Shown here in pieces: positions 1 to 62,240 of a stretch of DNA of 64,000 nt. The position numbers and the translations under genes are program-made. Origin of the DNA: Laspinema palackyanum D2a. Lineage in GTDB: Bacteria > Cyanobacteriota > Cyanobacteriia > Cyanobacteriales > Laspinemataceae. The notes below the pieces were generated by a model. It was not told the origin of the DNA. It was given only the letters and a program-made list of their open reading frames with translations, and did not search any database. The DNA is taken from NCBI RefSeq assembly GCF_025370845.1, contig NZ_JAMXFF010000042.1. One strand, 5' to 3'. Each line of letters starts with the position of its first letter. The first letter of the stretch is position 1.

Positions 1-196
1 AACAGGGGATCCGGAAACGACTGAAGTCGTTACTACGAACAGGGGATCCGGAAACGACTGAAGTCGTTACTACGAACAGGGGATCCGGAAACGACTGAAG
101 TCGTTACTACGAACCGGGGATCCGGAAACGACTGAAGTCGTCACTACGAACCGGGGATCCGGAAACGACTGAAGTCGTTACTACGAACCGGGGAGA
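1..196. repeat. Tandem array of a 37-bp unit (aacaggggatccggaaacgactgaagtcgttactacg), about 5.3 identical copies with one C/A variant. The array runs off the 5' edge of the window. The unit contains a 9-bp-stem palindrome, GTAACGACT-ga-AGTCGTTAC.
   Basis: Period-37 repetition is directly visible with no intervening unique spacers. The core AACGACTGAAGTCG recurs at three other loci in the window. Confidence 0.9.
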
Positions 197-262
197 ATGG
201 TCTCTCCCCCAATCCGCCCCATCCTCCCCATCCCTCCATCCACATTTATCAAGTATTTAACA

Positions 263-1126
263 ATGACAACTCCTGACATTCAATGGTATCCCGGCCATAT
301 TTCTAAGGCGGAAAAACAACTGGCGGAACAATTGAAGCTGGTGGATGTGGTGTTGGAGGTCCGGGATGCGCGGATTCCTTTGTCTACCCATCATCCCCAG
401 GTGCCGCAGTGGGTGGGGAGTAAAAGCCGAGTTTTGATTATTAATCGAGTGGATACGATTCTGCCACCCCTGCGCGATCGCTGGCATCTGTGGTTTCAAC
501 GTCAGGGAGAAACGCCTTATTTTACCAATGCTCAAGATGGGACGGGGATCAAGGCGATCTCTAAGGCGGCGAAGGAGGCGGGGATTGCTCTAAATCAACG
601 TCGTCTCGATCGCGGGATGCGCCCTCGCGCTGTGCGGGCGGTGGTGATTGGGTTTCCTAATGTGGGCAAATCGGCGTTGATTAATCGCTTAGTCGGGCGT
701 CGTGTGGTGGAAAGCGCCCGACGTGCGGGGGTGACTAAGCAACTGCGTTGGGTGCGGATTTCTGATGAACTGGAACTGTTGGATGCCCCTGGGGTGATTC
801 CCAGTAAGTTAGAGGACCAAGATGCTGCTTTAAAATTAGCCATTTGTGATGATATTGGCGAGGCAGCTTATGACAATCAACGGGTGGCATCGGCATTTGT
901 GGATATGGTGAAAGAGATTGAGGCAATGGGGACCGCATGGATGCCACCGGAGGCGTTGCGATCGCGCTATAAACTTGACCCTCTCCCCATGACGGGGGAA
1001 GATTATCTCCATAATTTTGCTGAATCCCGATATGAAGGCGATGTGGAACGGGCGGCAAGGCAAATTCTCAATGATTTTCGCAAGGGATTGTTAGGTCAAA
1101 TTCCCCTAGAATTGCCTCCGGAATAA
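263..1126 (+). CDS. rbgA: Ribosome biogenesis GTPase A (YlqF/RbgA family, circularly permuted GTPase)
   Basis: The translation shows the permuted G-motif order typical of YlqF: DVVLEVRDARIPLS (G4-like), then LIINRVD, then GFPNVGKSALINRL (P-loop). Start is placed at the internal ATG at 263 (MTTPDIQWYPGHI...), since the upstream part of the ORF overlaps the repeat array. Confidence 0.8.
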   Translation: MTTPDIQWYPGHISKAEKQLAEQLKLVDVVLEVRDARIPLSTHHPQVPQWVGSKSRVLIINRVDTILPPLRDRWHLWFQRQGETPYFTNAQDGTGIKAISKAAKEAGIALNQRRLDRGMRPRAVRAVVIGFPNVGKSALINRLVGRRVVESARRAGVTKQLRWVRISDELELLDAPGVIPSKLEDQDAALKLAICDDIGEAAYDNQRVASAFVDMVKEIEAMGTAWMPPEALRSRYKLDPLPMTGEDYLHNFAESRYEGDVERAARQILNDFRKGLLGQIPLELPPE

Positions 1127-1153
1127 CGGGAAGAGGGCGATCGCCTATTCAAG

Positions 1154-2059
1154 TTACCCTAGGGCTAGAATCTCTGGCGGTACTGGGGTGATTGCCCTTC
1201 GCAGTTCGCTGTCGGTGGCATTGAGCACAACCGCTAACACTCTCCCTGTGGACTCTTGTTGAATTAATGTCCCTTCTATCTGTCCATCATCATTCGGGTC
1301 CAGTTGACCTGGGGACAATTCACTTAACACCAAAACATCATCGGTGGTATAGGTTTGCAAAATATCAAGTTCGGCTGGTAAATCCCGAGTAAAGGGTTGA
1401 AATACCAAATCATTGGCTGTTACGCCTTCGGTGAGTCCAATGCGATCGCTATTAAAATCCAAAATAATATCCGCTTGTTCGGGATTGGTGGAGGCGGCAT
1501 CGGTGCGAAGGACAAATAAATCCGTACCACTTCCCCCCACCAGGCGATCGAGTCCGAAATCACCGATGAGGGTATCATTTCCTTCCCCACCTATCAGCAA
1601 ATCGTTGTCTTGACCCCCTCGCACGACATCGTTTCCTCGACCTCCGAGGACTAAATCATCCCCGCGATTGCCATTGAGAATATCATCCCCTTCTTCTCCA
1701 TAAACGGCATCATTATCCTGTCCACCGCGCAAGGTATCATTACCCCCTCGGCCAAATAAGAGATCGATGCCCAAATTGCCGTTGATCAGTTCATTTGATG
1801 TGGCACCGATGACCGTATCATCCCCGGCTAAAGCTCTGACTCCCCCTGGGCGTTCAGCGAGTTGTCCCGGACTCAGCCTAAAATCATCGGGACGCAGGGC
1901 GTCATCTTGGAGATCCAGAAAGTCCGCAGGGTTTAAGGCTTCACCCGGGGGAGCTCCTGGTGCTGTCGGTCCCGGAACCGCCCCAGGGTCGGGTTCTTCT
2001 GGGATCAGTGTACTCACGCAACCACAGGCTAAATCTCCGGGTAACATTCCAGGTATCAT
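1154..2059 (-). CDS. Hemolysin-type (RTX) calcium-binding repeat protein, probably secreted
   Basis: Many consecutive GGxGxDxL/I nonapeptide repeats, e.g. GNDTLRGGQDNDAVYGEEGDDILNGNRGDDLVLGGRGNDVVRGGQDNDLLIGGEGNDTLIG. Confidence 0.6.
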   Translation of the reverse strand: MIPGMLPGDLACGCVSTLIPEEPDPGAVPGPTAPGAPPGEALNPADFLDLQDDALRPDDFRLSPGQLAERPGGVRALAGDDTVIGATSNELINGNLGIDLLFGRGGNDTLRGGQDNDAVYGEEGDDILNGNRGDDLVLGGRGNDVVRGGQDNDLLIGGEGNDTLIGDFGLDRLVGGSGTDLFVLRTDAASTNPEQADIILDFNSDRIGLTEGVTANDLVFQPFTRDLPAELDILQTYTTDDVLVLSELSPGQLDPNDDGQIEGTLIQQESTGRVLAVVLNATDSELRRAITPVPPEILALG

Positions 2060-2190
2060 CTGTTTTCCTCGCTGTTGAAACTCACGTTATTGATTCTTTT
2101 TATTGTATGGCCTCATCCCCACTCCTCAACCCCACGGATGAACCGGAAGAACCGCAGGACAATAGGTTCCACGGAATTTGAGTGTTCCTC

Positions 2191-3405
2191 TCAGATTTTA
2201 AATCCCATGTCTTTTAAACTTTGGCGCAAGGCTGGACCTGCCGGGGATTTCCGTTGTTCATAGAGGGAAACAGCCCGTCGAAAGGCTTCTAATCCATCTA
2301 AAATATTTCCCCCTTTGAGTAAGGCAACGCCAAGATTTTGGTACGCTTCGGCATAGTTGGGATTGAGTTGAATGGCTTTGTAATAGGCGGCGATCGCCAG
2401 GGGAATTTGCTTTTTCTCTTTCAAGGCAATTCCCAGGTTAAAATAGGCGGAACTCAGGGAGGGGTCGATTTGTAGGACTTTTTGATAGGTGGCGATCGCC
2501 CCGGTGAGATTTCCGGTTTCGAGGAGGAGGTTCCCCAAGTTATTATACGCCCCCAATTTGATGGGTTCTAAAATCGGCAGGGCAACCGCTTTTTCATACT
2601 GCGCTTTCGCTTTGCTCAGTTTCTGCTTGCGCGTATAGGCTATCCCCAAATGATAATGCAGTTCATACACAACCAGGGGTTCTAACCTTGTACTCGCGGC
2701 TAATCCGAGTTTTAATAACTGCATCCCCCGTTGAATCTCTCCGGTTTGCACATACAAGGCCCCGAGTTTGCTGCAAGTATAAGCATCGTTCGGATGGGCG
2801 GCGAGATAGGATTCCATTGATTCTCGGGCCCGGGTCAATTTATCTCGGGAGGCGATCGCTTCTGCTTGATACCCTTCATGTAAAATTGCCACCTCCATCA
2901 ACGAACCCACCTGCCATTGATTGGATTGCTGCTGTAACATCCGTTGCACACTATCATCAATCATGGCATGATAGGGCCGCTCAAACTGAATCCCCGGTTG
3001 ATTTCTAAACAAGCGTGAAACCAGGGAATAAGGGGATTGTTGCGCCCCCACTTCTTGGCGAATTAAGTTCATTAACAGATAAGGTTTCGGCGGGGAATTG
3101 CCACCTCCATTAATCAATTCTTTGATTTGGGGGACAACTTCCGGGGTTAACACTTCATCGGCATCTAATACGAGAATCCAGTCCCCGTGAGCATATTTAA
3201 GGGATTCATTTCTTGCTGCAGCAAAATCATTGCACCAGTCGAAGTGATGAACATCAGCCCCAAACTCTTGGGCGATTTCTACGGTGCGATCGGTGGATCC
3301 GGTATCAAGAACCACCATTTCATCTACCAGATCCTTGATGCTGGCAAGACATTTGGGAAGGGTAGCTTCTTCGTTTTTGACAATGGTGCAAAGACTCAGC
3401 TTCAT
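2191..3405 (-). CDS. Family 2 glycosyltransferase fused to a C-terminal TPR-repeat domain
   Basis: N-terminus CTIVKNEEATLPKCLASI...VVLDTGSTDRT...LVLDADEVL is GT2-like with a DxD motif. The C-terminal half has repeated AYYxLGxxY / AxxxYxKAL TPR-like heptads. Confidence 0.75.
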   Translation of the reverse strand: MKLSLCTIVKNEEATLPKCLASIKDLVDEMVVLDTGSTDRTVEIAQEFGADVHHFDWCNDFAAARNESLKYAHGDWILVLDADEVLTPEVVPQIKELINGGGNSPPKPYLLMNLIRQEVGAQQSPYSLVSRLFRNQPGIQFERPYHAMIDDSVQRMLQQQSNQWQVGSLMEVAILHEGYQAEAIASRDKLTRARESMESYLAAHPNDAYTCSKLGALYVQTGEIQRGMQLLKLGLAASTRLEPLVVYELHYHLGIAYTRKQKLSKAKAQYEKAVALPILEPIKLGAYNNLGNLLLETGNLTGAIATYQKVLQIDPSLSSAYFNLGIALKEKKQIPLAIAAYYKAIQLNPNYAEAYQNLGVALLKGGNILDGLEAFRRAVSLYEQRKSPAGPALRQSLKDMGFKI

Positions 3406-3581
3406 CGGAAACCAGTTAACGGTAATGGGTCAGTTTTATTGTACTGGTAGAGACCCCGTAATGGTAGTCTGAGTTGAAGCCAGTGGCGATCGCGGCCTCC
3501 GCAGACCCCAGGCGGGAGTAGTCGTCTCAGGGAGGATCTATTGGTTTATACTGGAACAGCAGAGCATGAAGAGGTAAGAAT

Positions 3582-3878
3582 GTGGCCGAAATTATTCTCA
3601 AAACGGATAATCCAGACCGAGTGACGGACTTAATAAAACGGGCGATCGCTGCTGAAATAGATCGCATTGAAAAAAATCTGAAATTTACAAAAAAAAGACT
3701 TCAGGCGTTTGAAGATAAATATAATCAACCCTCCCATCAGTTGAAAAATAGACTGACGGCAGAAGATATGGATGGGGGAGATTTAGAATATTTAGAATGG
3801 GCGGGAGAATATAAACTATTTTTAGAGTTAGAGGAACAAATTAAAGTCCTCAAAAGCTTAGAATATGTCAATCCATAA
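3582..3878 (+). CDS. Hypothetical small coiled-coil protein (GTG start)
   Basis: 98-aa ORF with charged heptad-like sequence. No recognisable family. Confidence 0.3.
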   Translation: MAEIILKTDNPDRVTDLIKRAIAAEIDRIEKNLKFTKKRLQAFEDKYNQPSHQLKNRLTAEDMDGGDLEYLEWAGEYKLFLELEEQIKVLKSLEYVNP

Positions 3879-3979
3879 TGCCAGTTTTTACCTCAAACTC
3901 AGATTGAGTGACAGTCGCCCAGATGGAGGGCGATCGGCACTCTTGTCATACCGTGAGACTCTGTTAGGAGATTATCCTC

Positions 3980-4549
3980 ATGACTCTAACCCTATATCCT
4001 GATTTACCAATCCTGGAAAGCGATCGCCTTATTCTTAGAAAAATGACCCTAGAGGATGCACCGGATCTGTTTGAGTATGCCTCGGACCCTGAAGTCGCCC
4101 AATACACAACCTGGTACCCGCATCAATCCCTAGAAGACAGCCATATTTTTTTAAATTCTGTACTCGAAAACTATCAGACGCCTAAAGGTTTTAATTGGGG
4201 CATTATCCATAAAGACCATTCTAAATTAATCGGTACTTGTGGTCTCGTTGACTGGGTTCAATCTGATCATTACGCTGAAATCGGCTATGCCTTAGCTAGA
4301 CCCTACTGGGGTCAAGGATATATGCCCGAATCTGTAAAAGCTGTCGTCGCCTTTAGCTTTCAGGAAACTGACTTAAACCGGATTGAAGGGCGATGTAAAC
4401 TCCCTAACCACGCCTCCGCAAGGGTTATGGAAAAAGTCGGCATGAAATTTGAGGGAATCCTCCGCCAACAGATGTTTATTAAAGGCAGCTTTCATGATAT
4501 GAAACTCTATGCCATTTTGCGGGAAGATTGGGAAAAGTTATCCAAATAG
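3980..4549 (+). CDS. GNAT family N-acetyltransferase (RimJ/RimL-like)
   Basis: LILRKMTLEDAPDLFEYASDPEVAQYTTW...GYALARPYWGQGYMPESVKAVVAFSF matches the Acetyltransf_3 / RimL pattern. Confidence 0.8.
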   Translation: MTLTLYPDLPILESDRLILRKMTLEDAPDLFEYASDPEVAQYTTWYPHQSLEDSHIFLNSVLENYQTPKGFNWGIIHKDHSKLIGTCGLVDWVQSDHYAEIGYALARPYWGQGYMPESVKAVVAFSFQETDLNRIEGRCKLPNHASARVMEKVGMKFEGILRQQMFIKGSFHDMKLYAILREDWEKLSK

Positions 4550-4674
4550 AGGGTATCATTTCCGGGTAAAAAGGGAGTTTAGCTCTCTCATGGCGCAGCT
4601 AAACTCCCAACAAAATTGACTCAATCGTTGGGTTGTAATTTAGGAGATTGTCGCTACCTTCAGGGCCAATTTTT

Positions 4675-5280
4675 CTACATTTGAGGCGGTAGAATTACTT
4701 TATCAATCACATGAATCACGCCGTTACTTGCTTGGATATCGGCTTGAACCACGTTAGCACTATTGACCATAACGCCATCGTCAGCAACGGTGACATTGAT
4801 GGAACGTCCTTCAAAAAGGCTGGGAACTTCCGTCGTACTCAAATCCCCAGACATGACTGAACCCTGTACGACATGGTAGGTTAAAACTTGAACCAAAAGC
4901 TGGCGGTTTTCCGGCTGTAATAACTGCTCTAAAGTGCCTTCGGGTAAAGCGGCAAAAGCCTCATCGGTGGGTGCAAAAACGGTGAAGGGACCTTCACCGG
5001 AGAGGGTATCCGTTAAACCGGCAGCTTCTAAAGCGGTAGTGAGGGTGGAGAAGGATTCGCTACCCGCAGCAATGTCAGCAATTGTCTGTTGACTCGTTTC
5101 CATTGTGCTCGCGGGGGTTTGAGTCACAGATTCAGCGATCGCCTCATTAGAATCGGTCATGTTATCTGCTGCGATGCTCACCCCTGCCACCACAGGCAAT
5201 CCCATCATTAAACTCGTTCCTGCAACACCCAAAAAGATAGCAACCTTTTTGTTGAAACCGTTCCAAATTTTAGAGTTCAT
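4675..5280 (-). CDS. Fasciclin (FAS1) domain protein with N-terminal signal peptide
   Basis: Signal-like N-terminus (MNSKIWNGFNKKVAIFLGVAGTSLMMGLPVVAGVSIA), then TVFAPTDEAFAALPEGTLEQLL...VLTYHVV...NGVIHVIDKVILP, which are FAS1 hallmarks. Confidence 0.8.
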   Translation of the reverse strand: MNSKIWNGFNKKVAIFLGVAGTSLMMGLPVVAGVSIAADNMTDSNEAIAESVTQTPASTMETSQQTIADIAAGSESFSTLTTALEAAGLTDTLSGEGPFTVFAPTDEAFAALPEGTLEQLLQPENRQLLVQVLTYHVVQGSVMSGDLSTTEVPSLFEGRSINVTVADDGVMVNSANVVQADIQASNGVIHVIDKVILPPQM

Positions 5281-6320: not shown

Positions 6321-6635
6321 ATGAATCAACAAGAATTGCTCGATCGCCTCAAACAAACAGTCCACGAAGTCGAACCGGAAGCCGAAATCATCTTATTTGG
6401 TTCCCGTGCCCGTGGGGATGCCGCATCAGACTCGGATTGGGATTTTCTGATTCTTCTGAATGGTGAGGTTGACCCCGATCGCTCCTTAGCAGTCCGCGAT
6501 CGCTTATATCATCTGGAATGGGACTGTGGCAAAGTCCTCACCTCCATTGTCCGCAGTCGTCAAGACTGGCAAACTCCACTTTACCAGTCCACCAGATTAT
6601 ATCAATCAATTCAAGAACATGGCATCCTCCTATAA
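6321..6635 (+). CDS. Nucleotidyltransferase-domain protein (MNT-type, minimal Pol-beta fold; often the antitoxin of HepT/MNT pairs)
   Basis: ILFGSRARGDAASDSDWDFLILL matches the GSxxxG...DxD nucleotidyltransferase motif in a 104-aa protein. No HEPN partner was found adjacent. Confidence 0.6.
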   Translation: MNQQELLDRLKQTVHEVEPEAEIILFGSRARGDAASDSDWDFLILLNGEVDPDRSLAVRDRLYHLEWDCGKVLTSIVRSRQDWQTPLYQSTRLYQSIQEHGILL

Positions 6636-6654
6636 ACCCGATATCGCCTCCCCA

Positions 6655-6684: not shown

Positions 6685-6703
6685 CTTGTACATTAGCTGG
6701 ACA

Positions 6704-17410: not shown

Positions 17411-19447
17411 CTTACGGTTCGCTCATTTTTGACCCTACTCCCTGAGATGGGAAACCATAACAGAAGGCTCACCCGAAGTGGAAGGGGGTGGCCCCTCATC
17501 GTCGGCCAAGTTCGTATAAATCTTTAGGGGAATATTTAGACGAATTAAAATTTGTTGGTGAATGGGAGAAAATTTGGTAAGATAGCGATTGCCTCCAAGA
17601 GCTATTGGAACCGAAACCAAGCTAATTTCTTTAAAGGCTGCCAACAAGAGTTCGGAACTAGGTCTGGCAGTTTTCCGTTTGGGGTTGCCGGGGTAAATTC
17701 CTGAAATTTTTTCATCATTTTTACTCAAACTTCGGCGCATCTCAAATTCTAAAAGTGTTAAGAGGCGTAATCCAATGGATAGCAATCGGATGAGCCCGAT
17801 AATATGGTCTTCTCTTTGTAAATACATCGGAGTCAAAGATAAAGGGAATCCTTTCATTCTGCCGAACCCTTTTTCAACTAAATATTCATCCCGATAAACT
17901 AGGACTCCATCAGTGACTGACAACTGCTCGGATGGTGAATTAGTAGCATAAACTCTCCAAGAACAACTGGTGAGTTTTTGGGTTAAAGCCTCGGATAATA
18001 CCTGGACACTTAAAGTTACTAACTCTTCTTTAATGATTTGAGCCGGTTGACCTTTGTACGCCCTCCGTTGAGAGATTTTCCTCTCGGTCGCATACTCAAC
18101 GTTCAACAATCCCTCTACCTGATATTTTTCGATTATTCTTTCGACTTCGTTCTGGTAAGAGCTTAAACCAATCAACCGTTTTTTACCTTTTCTGGGTTGA
18201 TTTAATTGCTCCAGTTCTAGTTGAGCTTGTTGGACTCGCTCTTTTAACGAGTTTTGGGCCGCATTAGCTATCTTGATTGACCTGACTACTAGATGTCGTT
18301 CTTTCCAGTTGATTTTGTTTCCTTCAAACTCTGCCATCTGCTCGACTTCTATTTCAAAGGCTTCCGCTATTTTAGTCGGCTCACCCGAATCTAAATCTCT
18401 ATAAACCTCGGTTAATTCTTGAGCGGTCTGTTCTCGCTCCATTAAATAACTGGTGAGAACGGATTCAGGAATTTGAGTGGCACTCAAGGGAACTAGATAA
18501 TAATCTCCCTGTTCATGAATAAACCAGCGTGTTTGCATTGCCCCCATCTTACTGTCGCCTACATACAATAGTCCAGTTTTTTTCAGGGTTTCTCTGACTC
18601 GGGTAATGGCCGGACAATATAAAGGGTCGTCGGCTTTATTTCCCGCTACTATGTCCGTGGCCACTGGCATTCCCAAGGGGTCTAGGGTGGCCAGCATCAC
18701 TTTAATTTGAGCTAAATCGGGTCGATGATCTTTACTGTACCCGTATTGAAATAATCCTTGTTCATTCACGCCACAGTATGAAGATGCAGTGGTAGGATCT
18801 AGGCGGACTCTCTCGGCTTTTAAGTCATATGCTTGTATGAGGTTACCCCCCAGTTCTTGCTCAAACTTTTCCCAATGCAAGGAGTCACTTAGGTATCGCA
18901 ATACGGCTTGTAATCGGTCATCACTTAAATCTAAGGCTCTAATAGCAGTCCCGGTAGAAATACTTAACGTCTCTAACCGATTTTCTGCCCAAGACTGAAC
19001 ATGACTTAATCGATGGTCGGCCTGTGATAAAATGTAACTCAACCATACTACAGCTACCCATCCTAGACTTATTCCTTGCCAGTTCCCATGAGTCATGAAG
19101 TGTTTGTCTAGTAGCGGTTGGATTCCCATTCGCTCCAATACTGCTAGTAATACAGGGATGTCATCTACTCTTTCGACGTCGAATTCTTCGTTGTTGTTCA
19201 TCCCTATGTCCTGCCTACACTACAAAGGTTTGAGCTACAATACCCAGGCTCTTGAGGAGTCCTGATGTTAAGATAATCCTCTATTTTACACTAAAAGCTG
19301 GTCAACTCCATCTGGAGTTTTTAATACAAGTCTCTCTTCCTTTAACTTTCCTCCTATTTTTGAATGAACGCTCGGTTATTTTCTAGTCATAAGGAAAGGA
19401 TTAAATTGCCATCTTTTGTACTTCTTTAAAAATGAGCGAACCGTAAG
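17411..19447 (-). mobile_element. Insertion sequence, IS1634/IS4-family-like, about 2.04 kb. It has ~25-bp imperfect terminal inverted repeats and a 6-bp target site duplication, TTAATC.
   Basis: Left end cttacggttcgctcattttt (17411-17430). Right end aaaaatgagcgaaccgtaag (19428-19447) is its reverse complement. TTAATC flanks both ends (17405-17410 and 19448-19453). Confidence 0.75.
17435..19201 (-). CDS. DDE transposase (IS1634/IS4 family-like, 588 aa)
   Basis: Single long ORF filling the IS. Transposase-like length and composition. Family assignment is from memory of IS1634-type proteins and is tentative. Confidence 0.7.
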   Translation of the reverse strand: MNNNEEFDVERVDDIPVLLAVLERMGIQPLLDKHFMTHGNWQGISLGWVAVVWLSYILSQADHRLSHVQSWAENRLETLSISTGTAIRALDLSDDRLQAVLRYLSDSLHWEKFEQELGGNLIQAYDLKAERVRLDPTTASSYCGVNEQGLFQYGYSKDHRPDLAQIKVMLATLDPLGMPVATDIVAGNKADDPLYCPAITRVRETLKKTGLLYVGDSKMGAMQTRWFIHEQGDYYLVPLSATQIPESVLTSYLMEREQTAQELTEVYRDLDSGEPTKIAEAFEIEVEQMAEFEGNKINWKERHLVVRSIKIANAAQNSLKERVQQAQLELEQLNQPRKGKKRLIGLSSYQNEVERIIEKYQVEGLLNVEYATERKISQRRAYKGQPAQIIKEELVTLSVQVLSEALTQKLTSCSWRVYATNSPSEQLSVTDGVLVYRDEYLVEKGFGRMKGFPLSLTPMYLQREDHIIGLIRLLSIGLRLLTLLEFEMRRSLSKNDEKISGIYPGNPKRKTARPSSELLLAAFKEISLVSVPIALGGNRYLTKFSPIHQQILIRLNIPLKIYTNLADDEGPPPSTSGEPSVMVSHLRE

Positions 19448-19626
19448 TTAATCTGTTCAATTCCTAACATTTCTGCCGCCTCAGTTTGAGTCATATTTTG
19501 GGCGGCGATAATACCGCTAATTCTCCTGGCAAGTTCTGCCTTGACCAGTAATTCATCAGAATTTTCTAACTCTAAATCTGCGAATACATTGCCACTCCCT
19601 GCTTGTACTTTAATCGGGTGATTCAT
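19448..19626 (-). pseudogene. 5' fragment of the higA-like HTH antitoxin gene interrupted by the IS. The ORF reads on into the IS inverted repeat to a stop at 19426.
   Basis: MNHPIKVQAGSGNVFADLELEN...MTQTEAAEMLGIEQI has an HTH_XRE-like helix. The last residues (NLRFAHF) are encoded by IS terminal sequence. Confidence 0.6.
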
Positions 19627-19633
19627 ATTTTTA

Positions 19634-30737: not shown

Positions 30738-30759
30738 GCCTCCAGGAATTGTGAGATAA

Positions 30760-31110
30760 ACACCGGCGGGGGTTAAAACCCCCGCCTAACAGCTAAAGTC
30801 GGTTGAAACTGACATCTTGCACCTGTTGCAACAACCGGCGGGGGATTAATCCCCCGCCTCATAGCTAAAGTCGGTTAAAACCGACTAAACATCCCACGGG
30901 ATAAGACGAGCAGTCGTCTTTAGACGACTTTAGCTGTTAGGCGGGGGTTTTAACCCCCGCCGGTTGTTGAGAATGGTGCAAGATCTCAGTTGAAACCGAC
31001 TAAAAGTATTATGGGATGGTGTTTTTAGTCGGATTTATCCGACTTTAGCTATGAGGCCGCCAATCGTTTAAACCCCCGCCGGTTGTTGCAACGGGTGCAA
31101 GATCTCAGTA
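30760..31110. repeat. Several copies of the CCGGCGGGGGTT(A)AAACCCCCGCC / AGTCGGTT-AACCGACT palindromic element family
   Basis: Seen directly. The same building blocks appear at 29053-29280. Confidence 0.75.
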
Positions 31111-40555: not shown

Positions 40556-40933
40556 ATGGCAAAAATTTTGATTGTTGATGACTCTACCCTTTCTCGGGGA
40601 ATACTGCGTCGCATCCTCCAGACCGAAGGCTACTCGATTATTGAGGCCAAAAATGGATTGATGGGCATTGAGAGTTACTATATAGAAAAACCCGATCTCG
40701 TCTTACTAGATATCGCGATGCCAGATATGCAGGGAACCGAAGTGCTGGAAAAATTACTCGCCTTCGACGATCGCGCCCGGATCGTGATGGCAACTGCTGA
40801 CCTGCAAGAACTGACCCGCGCTTCCGTGATGGCAGCCGGAGCATTGGGATATCTGACTAAACCCTATAATCCCGATGCGGTTCTGGAGATGGTCAATCAG
40901 GTCCTCCAAGGAATCCCGGGAGGGGTAGGATGA
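40556..40933 (+). CDS. CheY-like single-domain response regulator
   Basis: MAKILIVDDSTLSRGIL...DLVLLDIAMPDMQG...YLTKP receiver signature. Confidence 0.8.
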   Translation: MAKILIVDDSTLSRGILRRILQTEGYSIIEAKNGLMGIESYYIEKPDLVLLDIAMPDMQGTEVLEKLLAFDDRARIVMATADLQELTRASVMAAGALGYLTKPYNPDAVLEMVNQVLQGIPGGVG

Positions 40934-41574
40934 AGCTGACAGAAACCCAACAGGATGCCTTAAGCGAACTGCTGAATATGGGTTTCGCTCGCACCGCCTC
41001 GGCCCTCTCAGAACTTACGGGTCATCGGGTGTTATTAGAGGTTCCCGAGGTTTCCATTCACCCGATTGAAGCACTCAGTGCCAAACTCGGGACCTTTGTC
41101 AAGGGTGAAATTGCCACAGTCCAGCAAATTTTTACGGGACGGGTTTCAGGCAATGCCCTGTTATTGTTGAACTATGATGGGGCGGTGCAACTGACCGAGT
41201 TGGTCACTCCCGAACAAGATATCCATCGCGATCGCCTCGATGCTTCGGCGGCAGAAGTGCTCACGGAAATTGGCAATATTTTACTCAACGCCTGCCTGAG
41301 TGTCTTTGGAAATTTGTTACAAATGCAAATCTCCTTTTCCGTTCCTCGGTTACATTTAGAAGCCTTAGATGGGTTACTCCATTCTCTGAGCATTGGTAAG
41401 GCGGAAATGCGGTATGCAATGGTGGTTTATACCGGATTTCGGATGAAGGAAAATTCCATTCACGGGTATTTAGTTATGGTCTTGAGTGTGGTCTCTTTAG
41501 AGAAATTACTCGAAGAGATTGATAAGTGGGCCAGTGAGGAGATAGCGCCCCCTAACCTTTCCATTTCTTCATAA
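40930..41574 (+). CDS. CheC/CheX-like CheY-P phosphatase. The start overlaps the CheY stop (ATGA).
   Basis: DALSELLNMGFARTASALSELTG is the CheC-type signature. Length 214 aa. Confidence 0.55.
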   Translation: MKLTETQQDALSELLNMGFARTASALSELTGHRVLLEVPEVSIHPIEALSAKLGTFVKGEIATVQQIFTGRVSGNALLLLNYDGAVQLTELVTPEQDIHRDRLDASAAEVLTEIGNILLNACLSVFGNLLQMQISFSVPRLHLEALDGLLHSLSIGKAEMRYAMVVYTGFRMKENSIHGYLVMVLSVVSLEKLLEEIDKWASEEIAPPNLSISS

Positions 41575-51489: not shown

Positions 51490-51834
51490 AAAACTCCTGT
51501 TAAATTCCCGCTTGCTGTGAATTTTACAAAACTTAATCCTCCGGTGGATTCTATCTCCAGAAAGAGATTGTGCCAGGGGGAGGGCTGATTTTTAATCCCT
51601 GTACCGGAGCCAAAAAGGAGTCAATCGATGGATTGTTGCTGAAATTTATGCTATATTAAGTGCTGATTTAAGATTGAAGGCGATGGAGCTCGCCAGAACC
51701 GCCGATTCAGCGATCCCAATGGGAGGCTGAAGGGCTGATGGCTCCTACCTGTCCGGGCTGAATGCCGGGAGGTAGGGCGCAAGCTCAATCCACTCCTGGA
51801 CCAGCCACTTCACACCTGTTCAGGAGCATAACGA

Positions 51835-53451
51835 ATGTTAATCAGTACAATTTGGATCTTAGGGATGGGCTTTTTTGCCGGTCAATTCGCCCTTCGCCTC
51901 GGTGCACCCCCACTCATTGGCATGATTTTGGTGGGAATCATCCTCGGTCCCGAAGTCGGCAATCGCCTAGAACCCGGAATTCTCGCCGCTGCCGATGATT
52001 TAAGAACCCTGGCGGTGATGATTATCCTCATGAAAGCGGGACTCGGACTCGATCGCGACAAGTTGGCGGAACAGGGAACCGTGGCCCTGCGATTGGGCAT
52101 TTTACCCGCTATCCTGGAAGCCGGGGCGATCGCCATTGCAGCAATGTTTCTCTTCCAGTTTGACCTCTTAACCGGGTTGCTCCTCGGTTGCATTATTGCC
52201 GCCGAATCTCCCGCCGTGATTGTCCCGGGAATGTTGCGTCTCAAACGATTGGGTTGGGGGGTCAAAAAAGGCATTCCCGATGCCATTTTAACCGGGTCTG
52301 CCCTCTCTGATGTTGTCCTCTTACTCCTCTTCAGCTTACTGTTGAATTTCCTGCAACAAGGGGAACTAGAGCGAATTATTTTACCCGGGGGATTCTCGTT
52401 GAATCCGCTTTTATTACTTCCCCTACAAGCCATTATCCAGGTTGTTTTAGGAATTCTGGCCGGTTATTTAGCCGCCCAATTATTAGTCTCCCTCCTAGAA
52501 CGGCAAAACTGGAGTAAAAATCCCGTCCAAGATGTCTTAATTGCCGCAGTTGTCGCCGCATTTGCTGTAATTGCTGCCCGAGAATTCCCTTATTTTTCTG
52601 GATATCTAGCGGTGATGTCGATGGGATTCTTTTTAATCGAACTGGATGCACCCCTGGCCCGCCGACTCCGCAATGGATTTAATTCCCTGTGGATTGTGGC
52701 GGAAATTTTCTTATTTGTGTTGATGGGAGCGAGTATTCAGATTCAAATTTTGGGAGAGATGTTCTTACCGGGCTTGACGATTTTAGCCGTGGGTTTATTA
52801 ATCGGACGCACCATTGGGTGGACACTTTCTACGGCAGGAAGTAATTGGAATTGGCAAGAAAAACTGTTTCTATTACCGGGAAATTCGGCGAAAGCAACAG
52901 TGCAGGCGGCCTTGGGTGCGTTACCGTTAGCGTATGGTATTGAAGGGGGAGAAATTATTCTTGCCATTGCTGCCTTGGCAATTTTAGTGACCGCTCCTTT
53001 GGGGGCTTGGGCGATTCCAACTTTTGCTCCAAAATTGCTACAAAAAGGAGAAGTAGACCCAACAAAAGTGACCGTTGATGCTCGGACGCTGTTTTTGGCA
53101 GCGGTGGATAGTTCCCCGGTAGCAATGGCCGTATTAAAACAAACCGCCCAGTTAGCTAGGCGTAGTCATGGAGAGGCGATCGTTTTGTATGTGGTCACGG
53201 AAGACAAACCCGAAGAAATTAAAGAAATTCAGGAGATGACTCAAACAGTTTTAGCGGATATTCGGCATCAGTTTATCACCGAAAAAGGTGCAGTGGTGGA
53301 GAGCATCCTAGGCTGGTCAAAAGCTCATCCCGTCACGGCAATTATTGTGGGGAAACGCCATAATCCCGAGGGAGAAGGGGCGACTGGGGGAGCAGTTTCT
53401 CAAGGGGTTTTAGCGGGGAGTCTCGTTCCGGTTTTGGTGGTCAAAACCTAG
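51835..53451 (+). CDS. Cation/proton antiporter (CPA2-like) fused to a C-terminal universal-stress-protein-like domain
   Basis: N-terminal 400 aa are polytopic (GMILVGIILGPEVG...). The C-terminal ...AIVLYVVTEDKPEE...AIIVGKRH... is USP-like. Confidence 0.65.
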   Translation: MLISTIWILGMGFFAGQFALRLGAPPLIGMILVGIILGPEVGNRLEPGILAAADDLRTLAVMIILMKAGLGLDRDKLAEQGTVALRLGILPAILEAGAIAIAAMFLFQFDLLTGLLLGCIIAAESPAVIVPGMLRLKRLGWGVKKGIPDAILTGSALSDVVLLLLFSLLLNFLQQGELERIILPGGFSLNPLLLLPLQAIIQVVLGILAGYLAAQLLVSLLERQNWSKNPVQDVLIAAVVAAFAVIAAREFPYFSGYLAVMSMGFFLIELDAPLARRLRNGFNSLWIVAEIFLFVLMGASIQIQILGEMFLPGLTILAVGLLIGRTIGWTLSTAGSNWNWQEKLFLLPGNSAKATVQAALGALPLAYGIEGGEIILAIAALAILVTAPLGAWAIPTFAPKLLQKGEVDPTKVTVDARTLFLAAVDSSPVAMAVLKQTAQLARRSHGEAIVLYVVTEDKPEEIKEIQEMTQTVLADIRHQFITEKGAVVESILGWSKAHPVTAIIVGKRHNPEGEGATGGAVSQGVLAGSLVPVLVVKT

Positions 53452-57197: not shown

Positions 57198-57518
57198 TTT
57201 TCCCCACTCCACTGCTTTCAGGGTGGGGATTTCTGCGGGTCACAGCAGATTGAATCAATAACGATGGGGCCAAACCCCAGAAATCGGATTGATTAAACGG
57301 TTTATCCATTTTCTATCCGATTTTTAAGGCTCAAATGCTCCCGGTTGAAACTAGAGGAATCTTTGTTAGTCTGGATGACAATTTTTTGGGCAATTCATTA
57401 TCAATTGTGTCGGGTTGGACTGAAAAATTTTTTTTATCCCCCTTATATCAACATTTCTCCATAAAATGGAAAGATAAGGGGGATTCTTGATAAAATGGTA
57501 ATTGTAATATAGGCTCCG

Positions 57519-59120
57519 GTGGGTGGGAAGGACTCCATGTCAAATCACCGTCATTGGCTAGAAACTGTAGAATATGCTTCCTTGTTCGCGTCGGTGGTGG
57601 CGTCGATAGTGGCAGTCTTTTTTAATGGGGCCATCTATGTCGCCGCCCTGCTAATTTGCAGTGCCCTGATTTTGAATGCGATCGGCCGGTATCGTCTGGA
57701 ACACCAAACTCGCCGAGTCAGTGGCACCACAAATCGACTGCATCGCCAATGGGCGGAAGAACTGGAGATGCTCACCCAACGAGTGGAAGCTCAGAAGCAA
57801 TTTCCCCTCCCTCAAGTCGAAGGGGAGGAAGGCACTCGCCCCCCTGTAGCTACGGGGGCCCCGGAGGAGTTGGCCTTGTTGCAAACCCGATTGGGTAAGT
57901 TAGAATCCGTGGACCTCTCCCAGATTCAAAGGGAAATCGCGGGGTTGAAAGAGCAATATGCCCTTTTGGATGAAAGTCTGGGCAATGCGATCGCCTATCT
58001 GAATCGCTCATCCTTTGCCTACCGCTTAGAACGAGTGGAGGAGGCGATGTCGCAATTGACCTCGCAAATTGTGGTCCCCTCGCCCCCACCTCGCCCGCAA
58101 CCGGAACTGGCGACGCCGGAATCAGCGACACCGGAACCCCCCAAGTCGGCACCCCCTTCTCAACCCGCCAAATCCAAACCGCCCTCGTCCAAAGTCGTCC
58201 TACCGTCCTTTGCTGCACCTTCGGAACCCACGGCCCAGAATTGGATCTGTCGCCACAGTTTGCCCGCCCATGCGGATTGGGTGCGATCGCTGGGAATTAC
58301 CCCCGATGGTCAAATCCTGGCAACCGGCAGTTTTGACACCAGTATTAAACTCTGGAAACTCTCCACCGGGGAACTGTTGCAAGTGCTCGCCGAACACAAA
58401 CGCGGGGTATTTTCGATTGCGATCGCCCCCGATGGCAAAACCCTCGCCTCTGCCAGTTGGGATAAAACCATCAAACTCTGGGAACTCCCCACAGGAACTC
58501 CCAAACAAACCCTCACGGGACATGGGGGTTCCGTCCGCGCCTTGGCGATCGCCCCTGATGGCAACACCCTGGTGAGTGGCAGTTTTGACGAGACAATTAA
58601 ATTGTGGGATTTGTCCAAAGCGGAATTAATCGATACCCTCACGGACTATACCGGACCCATCTTTTCCCTCGCCATTTCCCCCGATGGTCAAATTCTCGCC
58701 CGAGGCGGTGGGGATGGCACGATTACCCTGTGGCAATTCCAAACCAAACAGCCGATTTCGGTCCTCAATGGCAGTTTAGAGGCGGTAGAAGCGATCGTCA
58801 TCTCCCCCCAACAACTCCTCATCGGTGGCAGTGGCGACGGCAATATTCAACTCTGGAATTTGGAAACCGGAGAACTGCTGTGGAGTTTGAGCGCCCATTT
58901 AGGACCTGTAACCGCAGTTGCGATCGCCCCCGATGGCAACAGTTTTGCTACAGGTAGCGCCGATGGGACGGTCAAAATCTGGCATTTACCCACGGGTAAA
59001 TTAGTCTGTGCTTTGACGGAAGAAAGTGGGGCGGTGATGTCTTTAGTTTATAGTCCGAATGGACAATTTTTGGTTAGTGGTAGTGCGAAAGGGATGGTGA
59101 GAATTTTGGAACGGGAGTAG
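57519..59120 (+). CDS. WD40-repeat protein with N-terminal TM helices, coiled coil and a Pro-rich linker
   Basis: Seven or more ...GH...V.S..F.PDG..L.SGS.D.T.K.W blades. N-terminal hydrophobic segments. Confidence 0.8.
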   Translation: MGGKDSMSNHRHWLETVEYASLFASVVASIVAVFFNGAIYVAALLICSALILNAIGRYRLEHQTRRVSGTTNRLHRQWAEELEMLTQRVEAQKQFPLPQVEGEEGTRPPVATGAPEELALLQTRLGKLESVDLSQIQREIAGLKEQYALLDESLGNAIAYLNRSSFAYRLERVEEAMSQLTSQIVVPSPPPRPQPELATPESATPEPPKSAPPSQPAKSKPPSSKVVLPSFAAPSEPTAQNWICRHSLPAHADWVRSLGITPDGQILATGSFDTSIKLWKLSTGELLQVLAEHKRGVFSIAIAPDGKTLASASWDKTIKLWELPTGTPKQTLTGHGGSVRALAIAPDGNTLVSGSFDETIKLWDLSKAELIDTLTDYTGPIFSLAISPDGQILARGGGDGTITLWQFQTKQPISVLNGSLEAVEAIVISPQQLLIGGSGDGNIQLWNLETGELLWSLSAHLGPVTAVAIAPDGNSFATGSADGTVKIWHLPTGKLVCALTEESGAVMSLVYSPNGQFLVSGSAKGMVRILERE

Positions 59121-59129
59121 TAGCACCAG

Positions 59130-59375
59130 GCGGGGGTTAAATCAACCATCTGTAGGGGCGATTCGCGAATCGCCCGATCGCCAAGGTTTGTAGGGCGATT
59201 CGCGAATCGCCCGATCGCCAAGGTTTGTAGGGGCGATTCGCGAATCGCCCGACCGGCGGGGGTTCAAACCCCCGCCTAATAGCTAAAGTCGGTTAAAACC
59301 GACTAAAAAGACCACCCTGTAACCTGTAGGGGCGATTCGCGAATCGCCCGATCTCCCGCCCGGTATTGCTTTACC
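59130..59375. repeat. Palindromic repeat cluster: GGCGATTCGCGAATCGCC x4, plus the CCGGCGGGGGTTCAAACCCCCGCC / AGTCGGTTAAAACCGACT element
   Basis: Seen directly. Confidence 0.8.
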
Positions 59376-60293
59376 CTAAAGTCGATACTGCCTATACAGT
59401 TGAGCAGCAGCACGATGTAAGAGCGAATGACGATAGACTAATCCGCGCATATCCTCGCAATATCCGCCCCCAATAACACAGGCGACGGGATATTTAGCGG
59501 CGAGACAGGTGCTTAATACCTGCATATCCCGCCGAAAAATCCCGGTATCACTCAACGCTAATTTACCCAGGCGATCGCCTGCATGAACATCAACGCCTGC
59601 GTCATACAAGACTAAATCCGGCTGGAATTGGCCGAGTAAATCCGGTAAATAACCGGCGACGGTTTGCAAGTATTCATCATCCTCCATTCCTACCGGCAAA
59701 GGCACATCTAAATCACTGGTTTGTTTTCGCCCAGGAAAATTGGCCTCACAGTGTAGAGAAAACGTAAATACATCCGGGTCATTTCTAAAAATATATGCCG
59801 TCCCATCCCCTTGATGCACGTCCAAATCCACAATTAAGACTTTGCGAATTCCTGCTAATTTTTGAATCATCCGCGCGGCGATCGCCAAATCATTGAAAAT
59901 GCAAAATCCTGATCCAAAATCGGGAAAGGCATGATGGGTTCCTCCTGCCGTGTTGCAAGCTAATCCATACTCTAATGCCAGTTTAGCGGTCAAAACTGCC
60001 CCACCAACGGAGATACAAGTACGATGGGCGATCGCCTCAGTCCAGGGTAACCCAATCCGACGCTGTGCTTTGGGGTCGAGAGTGCCTTGGCAGTATGCCT
60101 GGACATATTCTGGGTCATGAACCGACTCAATCCAGTCCTGGGGGGGCAATTCCGGCGCGTGACACTGTTCCGGAGTGACAACGCGATCGCCTAACAGCAT
60201 TTCATAGAGTAACCGAAACTTTTCCATCGGGAACCGATGGGACGGAGGTAGAGGGGCCACATAGTCAGGATGATAAACGATGGGTAAGTCCAT
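59376..60293 (-). CDS. Histone deacetylase-family amidohydrolase (AcuC/HDAC-like)
   Basis: MDLPIVYHPDYVAPLPPSHRFPMEKF... and ...DLDVHQGDGT... zinc-site signature. Confidence 0.8.
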   Translation of the reverse strand: MDLPIVYHPDYVAPLPPSHRFPMEKFRLLYEMLLGDRVVTPEQCHAPELPPQDWIESVHDPEYVQAYCQGTLDPKAQRRIGLPWTEAIAHRTCISVGGAVLTAKLALEYGLACNTAGGTHHAFPDFGSGFCIFNDLAIAARMIQKLAGIRKVLIVDLDVHQGDGTAYIFRNDPDVFTFSLHCEANFPGRKQTSDLDVPLPVGMEDDEYLQTVAGYLPDLLGQFQPDLVLYDAGVDVHAGDRLGKLALSDTGIFRRDMQVLSTCLAAKYPVACVIGGGYCEDMRGLVYRHSLLHRAAAQLYRQYRL

Positions 60294-60365
60294 GTCAGGG
60301 GAGGTTTAGGGTTGCCGGTGTGCAGTCCACTTTAAAATCTAATTTAAACTCTAAAATGGGGATTA

Positions 60366-60896
60366 TTGATAGTAATCAGGAGGGCGATCGTGCAATTCAT
60401 CACTTGGCAGTCTGGGAATAGCAATTCTGAGACAGTTGAAAATTTCGAGACAATTCGGCAATGGTGGCGCAATCTCAATGGCAAAGAGATCAACTTGCGC
60501 CAGCGCATCCTCTCCGAAACCGGGGATGTGCGAGACTTGGATTGGGAACCCCAACGCTTTGACGAAACCTTTGCGATCGCCAATCCTGATATACGCGGCA
60601 TTACCCTTTATTGGACAAAACCCGGAATGCCAGACGAACGCAATACCACCGTCCGACAACTCCAACTCGACCCCAAACGGCAGCAACTCTACATTTATCC
60701 CCAATCTCAACCCACCCTCGTTATGCAGATCGGACTCGCTGCCTTGAAATATCAAACTTTGACCTTGAAAGAAGCAGAAATTTTTGTAGAAGACAATCAA
60801 ACCTTAATTTTAAGAGATACTACCCGATTAATCGAGGTCAAACTCAAACTAGATGCTGAGATGATTGCTTCCCTGAAACAACAATTGCCGGACTAG
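60366..60896 (+). CDS. Hypothetical protein. The strand is uncertain: an overlapping ORF on the minus strand at 60363..60800 is about equally long.
   Basis: 176-aa ORF with no recognisable family. Confidence 0.25.
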   Translation: MIVIRRAIVQFITWQSGNSNSETVENFETIRQWWRNLNGKEINLRQRILSETGDVRDLDWEPQRFDETFAIANPDIRGITLYWTKPGMPDERNTTVRQLQLDPKRQQLYIYPQSQPTLVMQIGLAALKYQTLTLKEAEIFVEDNQTLILRDTTRLIEVKLKLDAEMIASLKQQLPD

Positions 60897-60981
60897 AATA
60901 GACAACAACTTTGAGGTGCATTCCAAAAGTTGTAAAACTGGAAATAGGTTTTTTGATTTTATCCTTTTCACTCCCTTCATT

Positions 60982-62034
60982 ATGTCTTTAGAAACTCCCT
61001 CTGTTCAAACCGATGTTTCCCCAACAAAAGGGAAAAAGCTGCCGTCTAAAGTTATTATCAAACTGGGCAAGTTTGTCTGGACAACTATCTGGCAACTGAT
61101 GATGTCAAAACTCGCCCCGCGCAATCAGACTGGGGAATATATTCGTCCCATCAGCGAGTTTAGAAATTCTGTGGGAACCCAACCGGACAACCCCTATCCC
61201 CCGGCGAAGGAACGCTATCGCCTCTATGTGGGATTAGGCTGTCCTTGGGCGCATCGGACCCTAGTGGTGCGATCGCTCAAAGGATTAGAATCGGCCATTT
61301 CCGTCGCCACTGTCTCCCCCTCCCCCGATGCCGGAATCTGGGTTCTGGATGAACCGGAATACGGCTGTCAAACCCTCCCGGAATTGTATGCGATCGCCCG
61401 TCCCGGATATCAAGGACGCAGCACCGTTCCAGTCCTATTTGATACCCAAACCCAGACCATTGTCAACAATGAAAGTGCTGAAATTATCATCATGCTCAAT
61501 GCAGAATTTAATGAATTTAGCACCCATCCCGAACTGGATTTGTATCCCGAACACTTGCAAGATAAAATAGAATATTGGAACGATAAAATTTACCCCGCCA
61601 TTAACAACGGCGTCTATCGCTGCGGATTTGCCCAAAGTCAAACCGCTTATGACACCGCCTGCACGGAACTGTTTAATACCTTAGATGAAATAGATGCAGT
61701 CTTGGCAACCCATCGATACTTATGCGGCGACTCATTAACCCTAGCTGATGTGCGCCTATTTACCACCATATTCCGCTTTGATATCGTCTATTACGGCCTT
61801 TTTAAATGTAATAAACGCCGCATCCAAGACTATCAAAACCTCGGACCCTATCTCCGGGATATCTATCAACTGCCCGGAGTAGCAGACACCTGCGACTTGG
61901 ATAGTATCAAACGAGACTATTACGGCAATCTCTTCCCCTTAAATCCCGGGGGAATTATTCCATTAGGACCCACTATCACCAACTTACAGGAACCCCACCA
62001 TCGCGAGGGTTTAACTCATTCTCTAAGTTCGTAG
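60982..62034 (+). CDS. Xi-class glutathione S-transferase / glutathionyl-hydroquinone reductase (YqjG-like)
   Basis: YRLYVGLGCPWAHRTLVVR carries the CPWA catalytic motif. A C-terminal GST_C-like region is present. Start is at the internal ATG. Confidence 0.7.
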   Translation: MSLETPSVQTDVSPTKGKKLPSKVIIKLGKFVWTTIWQLMMSKLAPRNQTGEYIRPISEFRNSVGTQPDNPYPPAKERYRLYVGLGCPWAHRTLVVRSLKGLESAISVATVSPSPDAGIWVLDEPEYGCQTLPELYAIARPGYQGRSTVPVLFDTQTQTIVNNESAEIIIMLNAEFNEFSTHPELDLYPEHLQDKIEYWNDKIYPAINNGVYRCGFAQSQTAYDTACTELFNTLDEIDAVLATHRYLCGDSLTLADVRLFTTIFRFDIVYYGLFKCNKRRIQDYQNLGPYLRDIYQLPGVADTCDLDSIKRDYYGNLFPLNPGGIIPLGPTITNLQEPHHREGLTHSLSS

Positions 62035-62240
62035 TAACGACTTCAGTCGTTATCTTTCTTCGTTCGTAGTAACGACTTCAGTCGTTATCTTGTCTTAGTT
62101 CGTAGTAACGAATTCAGTCGTTATTCTAGCATTTCCGAAGGCGATCGCTCTTTTTTTGCTTCACAGTAATTGCCCGGGATAACGACTGAATTCGTTACTA
62201 CGAACAATCCGGAAACGACTGAAGTCGTTACTACGAACAT
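62030..62240. repeat. Inverted cluster of the GTAACGACTGAAGTCGTTAC hairpin repeat: three minus-orientation copies with 7-11-bp spacers, then two plus-orientation copies
   Basis: gttcgtagtaacgacttcagtcgttatc x3, then gataacgactgaattcgttactacgaacaatccggaaacgactgaagtcgttactacgaac. Confidence 0.85.

Follow-up and report, generated by a model that had tools for sequence, protein, structure and literature searches.

A GTAG-tagged repetitive extragenic palindrome with head-to-tail arrays in Laspinema palackyanum, and its association with a tyrosine transposase in other genomes

A stretch of 64,000 nucleotides from the filamentous cyanobacterium Laspinema palackyanum D2a (contig NZ_JAMXFF010000042.1 of the assembly GCF_025370845.1), referred to here in its full length as the window, carries 17 copies of a short palindromic repeat, which are grouped in four intergenic regions. 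These elements are very probably repetitive extragenic palindromes (REPs) with a GTAG tag, tied to a REP-associated tyrosine transposase (RAYT), with locally duplicated arrays as a second layer of organization. The unit has 25 nt, GTTCGTAG-TAACGACT-TC-AGTCGTTA (searched as GTTCGTAGTAACGACTTCAGTCGTT), and in its longer form ends in ...TC-AGTCGTT(A); the Laspinema elements are also written as GTTCGTAGTAACGACT REPs. All 17 copies are intergenic, save for an overlap of 8 nt with one stop codon. A first-pass annotation, made from the letters of the sequence, had described repeats at four loci, all of which were recovered as described, and had grouped them by a shared palindromic core. They do form a genuine dispersed family, and the core AACGACTGAAGTCG, with up to two mismatches, gives 29 matches in the window, with both strands counted, against an expectation of 0.32, a count reached by none of 100 shuffles of the window.

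The first of these loci, array 1 (1-194, minus strand), runs past the left edge of the window, and is composed of 5.2 head-to-tail units of 37 bp, with 98% matches, as called by Tandem Repeats Finder, which was used for the tandem arrays of the window. Each unit is formed by the 25-nt REP and a 12-nt linker (TCCGGATCCCCG/T), and the minus strand reads first the tag, GTTCGTAG, and then the hairpin, in REP copies at 16-40, 53-77, 90-114, 127-151, and 164-188. Cluster 2 contains an inverted pair of single REPs with the tags inside, GTTTGTAGTAACGACTTCAGTCGTT at 20666-20690 (minus strand) and a copy with the loop TT at 20713-20737 (plus strand), which are separated by a spacer of 22 nt, together with another single REP at 20816-20840 (minus strand), 106 nt downstream of the stop of a minus-strand gene (20946-23594). 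Array 2 (29292-29432, minus strand) has 3.8 head-to-tail units of 37 bp, 100% identical, built on the variant REP GTTCAACGTCCCGACTTCAGTCGTT. In cluster 4, the left arm (62027-62122, plus strand) has three head-to-tail REPs with periods of 35 and 36 bp (Tandem Repeats Finder span 62022-62124, period 35, 2.9 copies), while the right arm (62181-62238, minus strand), inverted with respect to the left, has two head-to-tail REPs with a period of 33 bp, and the tags of the two arms point outwards. The left arm begins at the 3' end of a gene for a protein similar to glutathione S-transferase (60982-62034), whose TAG stop codon (62032-62034) and last two sense codons fall within the GTTCGTAG tag of this arm's first REP (62027-62034). 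The stop codon lies within the REP tag likewise in L014, a relative with 90% identity, in which the 62027-62122 array is conserved (L-numbers denote loci fetched from other genomes or metagenomes). The two 37-bp arrays located by the first-pass annotation were confirmed, but another, at 59151-59252 (plus strand), had been missed; this third 37-bp array has 2.7 head-to-tail units in which a tag of the type GTTTGTAG stands on a different hairpin, GGGCGATTCGCGAATCGCCC, with a predicted energy of -8.7 kcal/mol, and a single CTGTAG-GGGCGATTCGCGAATCGCCC element lies at 59324-59349 (plus strand).

The conserved part of the element is longer than the core described initially, and takes in the tag GTT(C/T)GTAG, which stands directly 5' of the stem in 13 of the 17 copies. 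The four copies without the GTAG tag are those of array 2, where GTTCAACG replaces GTTCGTAG and the outer stem pairs are missing as well, leaving a hairpin that is predicted to be weak (about 4-5 bp). This variant represents 12 of about 380 core copies, and is present also in L092 and L102. The 8-mer tag occurs 17 times in the window, where about four occurrences would be expected, and also heads a different hairpin; an isolated GTTCGTAG at 29270-29277 (minus strand), for example, heads another G/C hairpin, CCAACAACCG-CTGGGGGTTAAAACCCCCAG, and this junction recurs at other loci. The stem of 9 bp with a 2-nt loop, as proposed initially, is found in some copies but is reduced to 7 bp in array 1, and the folding of the unit as DNA predicts a stem of 6-7 bp that closes a 4-nt loop, with an energy of -4.2 to -5.0 kcal/mol. 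Within the window, the polarity of the loop is fixed relative to the tag, so that the two ends of the element differ, with the conserved GTT(C/T)GTAG at one end and short pyrimidine-rich tails after the other. No Rfam family covers the arrays at either the gathering or the E-value thresholds, and only sub-threshold matches to a plant microRNA model were returned, on long palindromes.

Across all the fetched DNA, 158 distinct sequences begin with GTTCGTAG, whatever follows it, and 113 of them form at least six of eight Watson-Crick pairs in one fixed geometry, through 14 different stems. In an alignment of 42 such relatives, both-sided (compensatory) changes were found at seven of the eight stem pairs, and the covariation score was 0.568, whereas shuffles gave 0.177 and slid partners no more than 0.234. 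The tag is invariant in these 42 sequences, and the T that follows it and the loop-proximal C-T / A-G are also kept, while the middle of the stem varies. Judged from this alignment, the hairpin is under selection.

A species-level collection of genomes (596 Gb) was scanned with the 18-mer AACGACTGAAGTCGTTAC, which matched at least 112 stretches. Among the matches listed, 44 loci come from nine cyanobacterial assemblies, as counted from the record titles, and the cyanobacterial carriers include Laspinema, Oscillatoria sp. HE19RPO, Phormidium pseudopriestleyi, and a metagenome-assembled genome (MAG) of the Oculatellaceae. Most of the other listed matches belong to the Chloroflexota, mainly the Anaerolineae, with a few in MAGs of the Zixibacteria, Acidobacteriota, Acetothermia, and Poribacteria. 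An 18-mer would be expected to match about 17 times by chance in a collection of this size, but nearly all of the matches run on into a common tail, TACTAC(G/A)A(A)C, which argues that they represent the same element. An identical REP is thus common to the Cyanobacteria and the Anaerolineae. The cyanobacterial comparison set used below comprises 46 loci of the Laspinema group, with a total of about 0.4 Mb (401 kb), which contain 205 copies of the REP, in loci that were chosen by motif.

The first-pass annotation had suggested that a gene such as a REP-associated tyrosine transposase might be distributed together with the hairpin, and RAYT genes flanked by the element were indeed found in other genomes. 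The exact 18-mer lies beside genes of this type, encoding proteins of about 200 aa, in L065, L074, L076, L068, and L007 (one cyanobacterial and four Anaerolineae genomes), with the same layout at all five genes, that is, a tag and hairpin upstream and an inverted copy downstream. The proteins reach 91.5 bits against the NCBIfam model NF047646, "REP-associated tyrosine transposase" (cut-off 80), with the cyanobacterial one at 78.6 bits, and match the structure of the TnpA-REP of E. coli (PDB 4ER8) with an E-value of 1.9e-6, with the HUH and Tyr catalytic motifs aligned. The Pfam model Y1_Tnp remains below its threshold (20.3 bits versus 23), and sub-threshold scores of this kind have been noted for the TnpA-REP class (PMC6006769). 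The motifs NHYH, VWY, and YIHYNP are invariant in the alignment, and the N-terminus is Pro-rich. The same motifs, with long canonical GT[AG]G REPs on the flanks of the gene, characterize subclass 2.8 of TnpA-REP, which had been sampled only in the Cyanobacteria, with relatives in other phyla (PMC6006769). By these motifs and flanks, the RAYTs found beside the element match subclass 2.8.

This association extends beyond the exact 18-mer. In a wider set of 80 metagenomic loci with RAYTs of the subclass 2.8 type, the density of GT[AG]G-hairpins is 3.97 per kb at a distance of up to 250 nt from the ends of the RAYT gene, in comparison with 0.18 per kb elsewhere (a 22-fold difference), and a tagged hairpin was found at the ends of the gene in 54 of the 80. 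The stem varies from locus to locus in this set, while the tag is constant. A RAYT gene with its own REP family on the flanks is also present in L128, L131, L202, and L203, and further genomic contexts of RAYT homologues presented the same arrangement. Five head-to-tail REPs with a period of 32 bp come after one cyanobacterial RAYT. In unrelated metagenomes and MAGs, head-to-tail arrays of the gene's own REP come after RAYT genes of this subclass in L123 (2600-2800), L195 (5185-5266), L143 (3848-3971), and L208/L209 (3612-3790), with periods of about 51, 27, 41, and 32 bp, respectively. On the basis of these sequences, tandem REP arrays beside the transposase gene seem to be common in subclass 2.8. 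Two weak candidates for a RAYT were rejected: a tblastn match of E. coli YafM at 40857-40991 of the window corresponds to a CheY/CheC-CheX region, and a match in L100 corresponds to a 473-aa open reading frame (ORF) unlike a RAYT, of the TldD/PmbA type by eye, which both of the subclass 2.8 RAYT queries miss.

The second layer of organization is the array. The close head-to-tail spacings in the 46 loci are 31, 32, 33, 34, 35, 36, and 37 bp, in 16, 18, 6, 2, 25, 17, and 12 intervals, respectively, in arrays that reach 11 copies and of which some mix periods, such as 31/32 or 35/36/37. The period is the sum of the 25-nt REP and a linker of 6-12 nt, and composite units that bear REPs, of about 66, 88, 97, and 162 bp, were also seen. 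Linkers are identical or near-identical within an array and different between arrays, and in some arrays two types of unit form a mosaic. REPs are also arranged in inverted pairs and in inverted arrays, as at 20666/20713 and in the two arms of cluster 4 (62027-62122 versus 62181-62238).

Over 10 kb, the window shares 97.7% identity with contig JAMXFE010000013 (GCA_025370835.1), and it is about 90% identical to the long-read cyanobacterial MAG MFD01721.bin.1.50; the relatives used in the comparison of the arrays were L113 (97.7% identical), and L090 and L014 (both about 90%). Exact-protein look-ups of four window proteins beside clusters 2, 3, and 4 returned no records, and with none for the proteins near clusters 2 and 3, a comparison of relatives was possible only for clusters 1 and 4. 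The site of array 1 carries one REP in L090, five in L113, and at least five in the window, where the ratio of the two linker variants differs, while the inverted arm opposite is made up of two copies in L090 and four in L113. For the right arm of cluster 4, there are two copies in the window versus three in L014. Arrays therefore differ in copy number even between close relatives, and change by whole units. The claim of the first-pass annotation that the family is actively remodelling the genome holds only as far as this unit-wise expansion and contraction goes.

At the array 1 site, the 12-nt linker consists of the 5 nt found after the last unit plus the 7 nt found before the first, in other words, of both flanks, which is what the tandem duplication of a REP with its flanks would predict. 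This match favors tandem duplication, although it is suggestive only, as the TCCGG of the linker recurs at other REPs. Neighboring units can also pair with one another, and 148 nt of array 1 is predicted to fold at -27 kcal/mol (z = -4.5), which would provide a route to misalignment. Some of the orthologous copies in cluster 4 (window 62181-62238 versus L014 6555-6641) have the loop flipped from TC to GA, with the orientation of the tag kept, a pattern suggestive of a template switch inside the palindrome or of the replacement of a copy. Between the REP arms, L014 (6369-6500 versus window 62123-62180) also has about 130 bp of extra sequence, with the hairpin GCGAGCATCTTGCTCGC ... GCGAGCAAGATACTCGC.

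Other sequences accompany the REPs. A C-rich, octamer-like run of the CCCCATCC type adjoins array 1 at 205-241, and its reverse complement, (GGGGAGAT)n, adjoins the opposite, inverted REP arm in L113. Runs of 7-9-mers rich in either G or C, (GGGGAGAT)n and (CCCCATCC)n, lie on opposite sides of the inverted REP arrays (window 205-241; L113 9517-9560; L090 2336-2390 and 2545-2635), making the whole array 1 intergenic region one large imperfect palindrome, and similar runs are found beside REPs at many other loci. Two accessory hairpins, CTCGTGTTATGGC-AGGA-GCCATAACACGAG (20741-20770) and GCGTTACTTGGC-TGTT-GCCAAGTAACGC (20785-20812), stand next to the REPs of cluster 2, and both adjoin a REP again in L012, L013, L017, L052, L081, L086, and L110, all of which are loci of the Laspinema group. 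A second abundant intergenic family with two hairpins, (CAACAA)CCGGCGGGGGTTnAAACCCCCGCC - TAAnAGCTAA - AGTCGGTTnnAACCGACT, is found at 29046-29260, 30755-31095, and 59255-59305. It occurs in both orientations, in a 45-bp tandem array (29121-29228), and in long palindromes, and is headed by the GTTCGTAG tag at some loci.

Directly beside cluster 2, the region 17435-20520 holds an insertion sequence (IS) with a 588-aa DDE_Tnp_1 transposase, next to modules similar to toxin-antitoxin systems, which resemble, by eye, a HigB/HigA-like pair, HicB, and a HicA remnant. The first-pass annotation had supposed that a REP insertion truncates the start of a gene at 20655, but the only reading frame there is an unsupported 44-aa ORF amid these by-eye toxin-antitoxin remnants beside the IS. 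On the other side of the cluster, the gene at 20946-23594 (minus strand) encodes a protein of 882 aa in which all the domains of the Major Vault Protein are present (Vault repeats and MVP shoulder; E 1e-64), a bacterial homologue of the protein best known from the eukaryotic vault particles. Elsewhere in the window, a fluoride riboswitch (51670-51754, plus strand, 50.9 bits) lies upstream of the ORF 51835-53451, and a match to the "5' ureB sRNA" family (27470-27760, minus strand, 76.8 bits) is antisense within the gene of the urease alpha-subunit. The ORF 25021-27057 (678 aa) contains in-frame tandem repeats of 15, 6, 12/48, and 24 bp at 25145-25511, which suggests a repetitive, low-complexity segment of the protein.

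Among the known systems, the closest are the GTAG-tagged REPs (PMC3733652) and the REP/BIME/REPIN elements of E. coli and Pseudomonas (PMC3116915), which have in common with the Laspinema element a short extragenic palindrome with GTAG at its foot, copies found as singlets, inverted dimers, and head-to-tail groups with flanking DNA, and a position, for the Laspinema element in other genomes, on the flanks of a RAYT gene. The GTAG-tagged REPs have been reported from both the Cyanobacteria and the Chloroflexi (PMC3733652). The Laspinema element differs in its sequence, with the stem TAACGACT and the extended tag GTTCGTAG, which did not appear in the texts and supplements that were searched, and in the dominance of head-to-tail arrays over inverted doublets. 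Exact sequence strings of the Laspinema REP likewise returned nothing relevant from the searchable literature, to which the supplements of the 2013 REP survey were added. The sequence of the family thus appears to be new, although its class, the GTAG-tagged REPs associated with TnpA-REP subclass 2.8, is known, and the description of an unnamed repeat family in the first-pass annotation does not hold at the level of the class, which is well described (PMC3733652, PMC6006769).

The RAYTs themselves resemble subclass 2.8 in their NHYH motif (a HYH variant of HUH), W[YH], YIHYNP, length of about 200 aa, Pro-rich N-terminus, and flanking GT[AG]G hairpins (PMC6006769). In 2018, this subclass had eight members, all of them cyanobacterial (PMC6006769), whereas the present search recovered over 2,800 homologues (E <= 1e-10), with many Anaerolineae among the named matches and source genomes. 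The similarity to the TnpA-REP of E. coli (YafM, 4ER8) is distant, despite the aligned HUH and Tyr motifs, and that enzyme belongs to subclass 2.2, with its own REPs and different stems. HIP1 (GCGATCGC), which has a density of 1.45 per kb in the window, is an 8-mer that lacks the architecture of a tag plus a hairpin, and its sequence is unlike that of the REP. By description, the element may be likened to the HIP1 and STRR-type short repeats of cyanobacteria and to the small dispersed repeats of the Nostocaceae, all of them small repeats that crowd cyanobacterial intergenic regions and nest in one another.

In the mechanism proposed here, a RAYT (TnpA-REP, an HUH/Y1 enzyme) would recognize the tag and hairpin on single-stranded DNA, as the TnpA-REP of E. 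coli recognizes GTAG and a hairpin (PMC6006769), and would cleave and rejoin beside the REP, spreading the family through the intergenic regions. Such a spread by a RAYT is an inference drawn from the enzyme of E. coli and from the association of gene and repeat. A REP with a few of its flanking bases would then be duplicated locally, forming a head-to-tail array, which expands and contracts unit by unit, probably through replication slippage or unequal recombination, a process that the self-complementary arms of neighboring units would help. The local tandem duplication or slippage of the REP with its short flanks is the likeliest cause of the arrays, by a molecular route that is presumed here. 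Tandem REP arrays with flanking DNA have already been described in Pseudomonas (PMC3116915, PMC3733652).

A number of findings weigh against this reading. Of the 136 pairs of neighboring REPs that are no more than 120 bp apart, head-to-tail pairs make up 101 and inverted pairs 35, an excess that departs from the REPIN paradigm, in which the doublet is the presumed mobile unit in Pseudomonas and E. coli, and inverted pairs at a fixed short distance are not the main organization here. No clean filled-versus-empty site was recovered among the relatives compared, so that transposition is inferred rather than demonstrated. The 42 sequences of the covariation analysis were selected by eye from 114 tagged ones, and the fetched loci were picked because they carry the 18-mer, which biases the copy densities upward. 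There is also no RAYT gene in the window or in the approximately 0.4 Mb of DNA from the Laspinema group, and no RAYT named as Laspinema was found among the protein matches listed (up to 120 per search, overlapping). The searches by protein, cluster, context, and metagenome produced many RAYT-REP pairs, none of them from Laspinema, although a resident RAYT gene, if present only once among several Mb of genome, could easily have escaped them.

The elements might instead be kept as RNA or DNA signals at the 3' ends of genes, acting on mRNA stability, operon punctuation, or protein binding, with the length of the array tuning the effect, an explanation that is possible, if rather improbable. It draws on the intergenic position of all the clusters, on the orientation of the REP nearest to the stop codon, which puts the tag before the hairpin, as read along the upstream gene, in 5/5 clusters, and on a crude count over the related loci of 90 sense versus 55 antisense copies. 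REP clusters also keep the same sites across a genome divergence of about 10%, and such roles are documented for the REPs of enterobacteria (cited in PMC6006769). The hairpin is, however, followed by no run of T and is hence no intrinsic terminator, and there is no match to an Rfam family. The bias in orientation is weak, moreover, with counts that are not independent, and copy number varies freely between close relatives. A role of this type would in any case be compatible with an origin through a RAYT.

It is somewhat less likely that the RAYT itself builds the arrays, by repeated cleavage and rejoining, or by re-insertion next to an existing REP, adding one unit each time. Head-to-tail arrays do adjoin RAYT genes in L143, L155, L195, and L208/L209, the TnpA-REP of E. 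coli cleaves and rejoins REP DNA (PMC6006769), and ordered clusters led Bertels and Rainey to infer "a second mechanism" (PMC3116915). Array 2, on the other hand, has expanded as a perfectly identical array without the GTAG tag or a full hairpin, so that the growth of arrays appears to be independent of the substrate of the RAYT. The linkers differ between arrays, and the periodic overhang is found on either side of the array, which leaves no fixed cassette boundary, and no RAYT has been found so far in the lineage, that is, in the window, the approximately 0.4 Mb, and the listed protein matches. A broader scenario is comparably doubtful, in which the Laspinema REPs would have left the REPIN mode and would multiply chiefly in head-to-tail arrays with units of 31-37 bp, either through the addition of units by a RAYT or as orphan REPs with no resident RAYT, together with a transfer of a REP-RAYT pair across phyla, between bacteria that live in the same microbial mats, which the identical REP of the Cyanobacteria and Anaerolineae may reflect.

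The first-pass annotation had taken the identical period of divergent units as a sign of site-specific, length-constrained amplification, with protein-phased units of 37 bp, and this is now very unlikely. Three arrays of the window do have a period of 37 bp despite their unlike units, and all 96 of the close head-to-tail spacings in the Laspinema group fall in the band of 31-37 bp, with none at 38-60 bp. Every value from 31 to 37 bp occurs, however, single arrays mix periods, and the fourth array of the window has periods of 35 and 36 bp. There are also the composite units of about 66-162 bp and the periods of 27, 32, and 41 bp beside related RAYTs, and the band is simply the 25-nt REP plus a linker of 6-12 nt. 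The 37-bp period common to the arrays of the window is thus a coincidence.

A degenerate or spacer-less CRISPR, or miniature inverted-repeat transposable elements (MITEs) moved by a DDE transposase or by the TnpA/TnpB of IS200/IS605, can be dismissed as highly improbable: the period of about 37 bp and palindromic repeat do recall a CRISPR, and cluster 2 has an IS with a DDE transposase 1.5 kb away, but the linkers of 6-12 nt are identical within each array and are thus not unique spacers, and the copies, scattered as singlets and inverted pairs, belong to no array-specific locus, while the 25-nt element has no terminal inverted repeats beyond the hairpin and no duplicated flanks around its single copies, and its recurrent neighbor is a RAYT rather than a DDE transposase, an IS200-type TnpA, or TnpB.

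The interpretation as GTAG-tagged REPs tied to a RAYT, with arrays duplicated locally, places a strain-variable repeat of Laspinema and the related Oscillatoria and Phormidium within the REP-RAYT framework, and ties it to the little-studied subclass 2.8. The arrays are usable as variable-number markers for the typing of strains, and are a likely cause of breaks in contigs assembled from short reads. The dominance of head-to-tail copies, together with the presence of an identical REP in different phyla, bears on the nature of the replicative unit of the REPs and on the formation of their ordered clusters.

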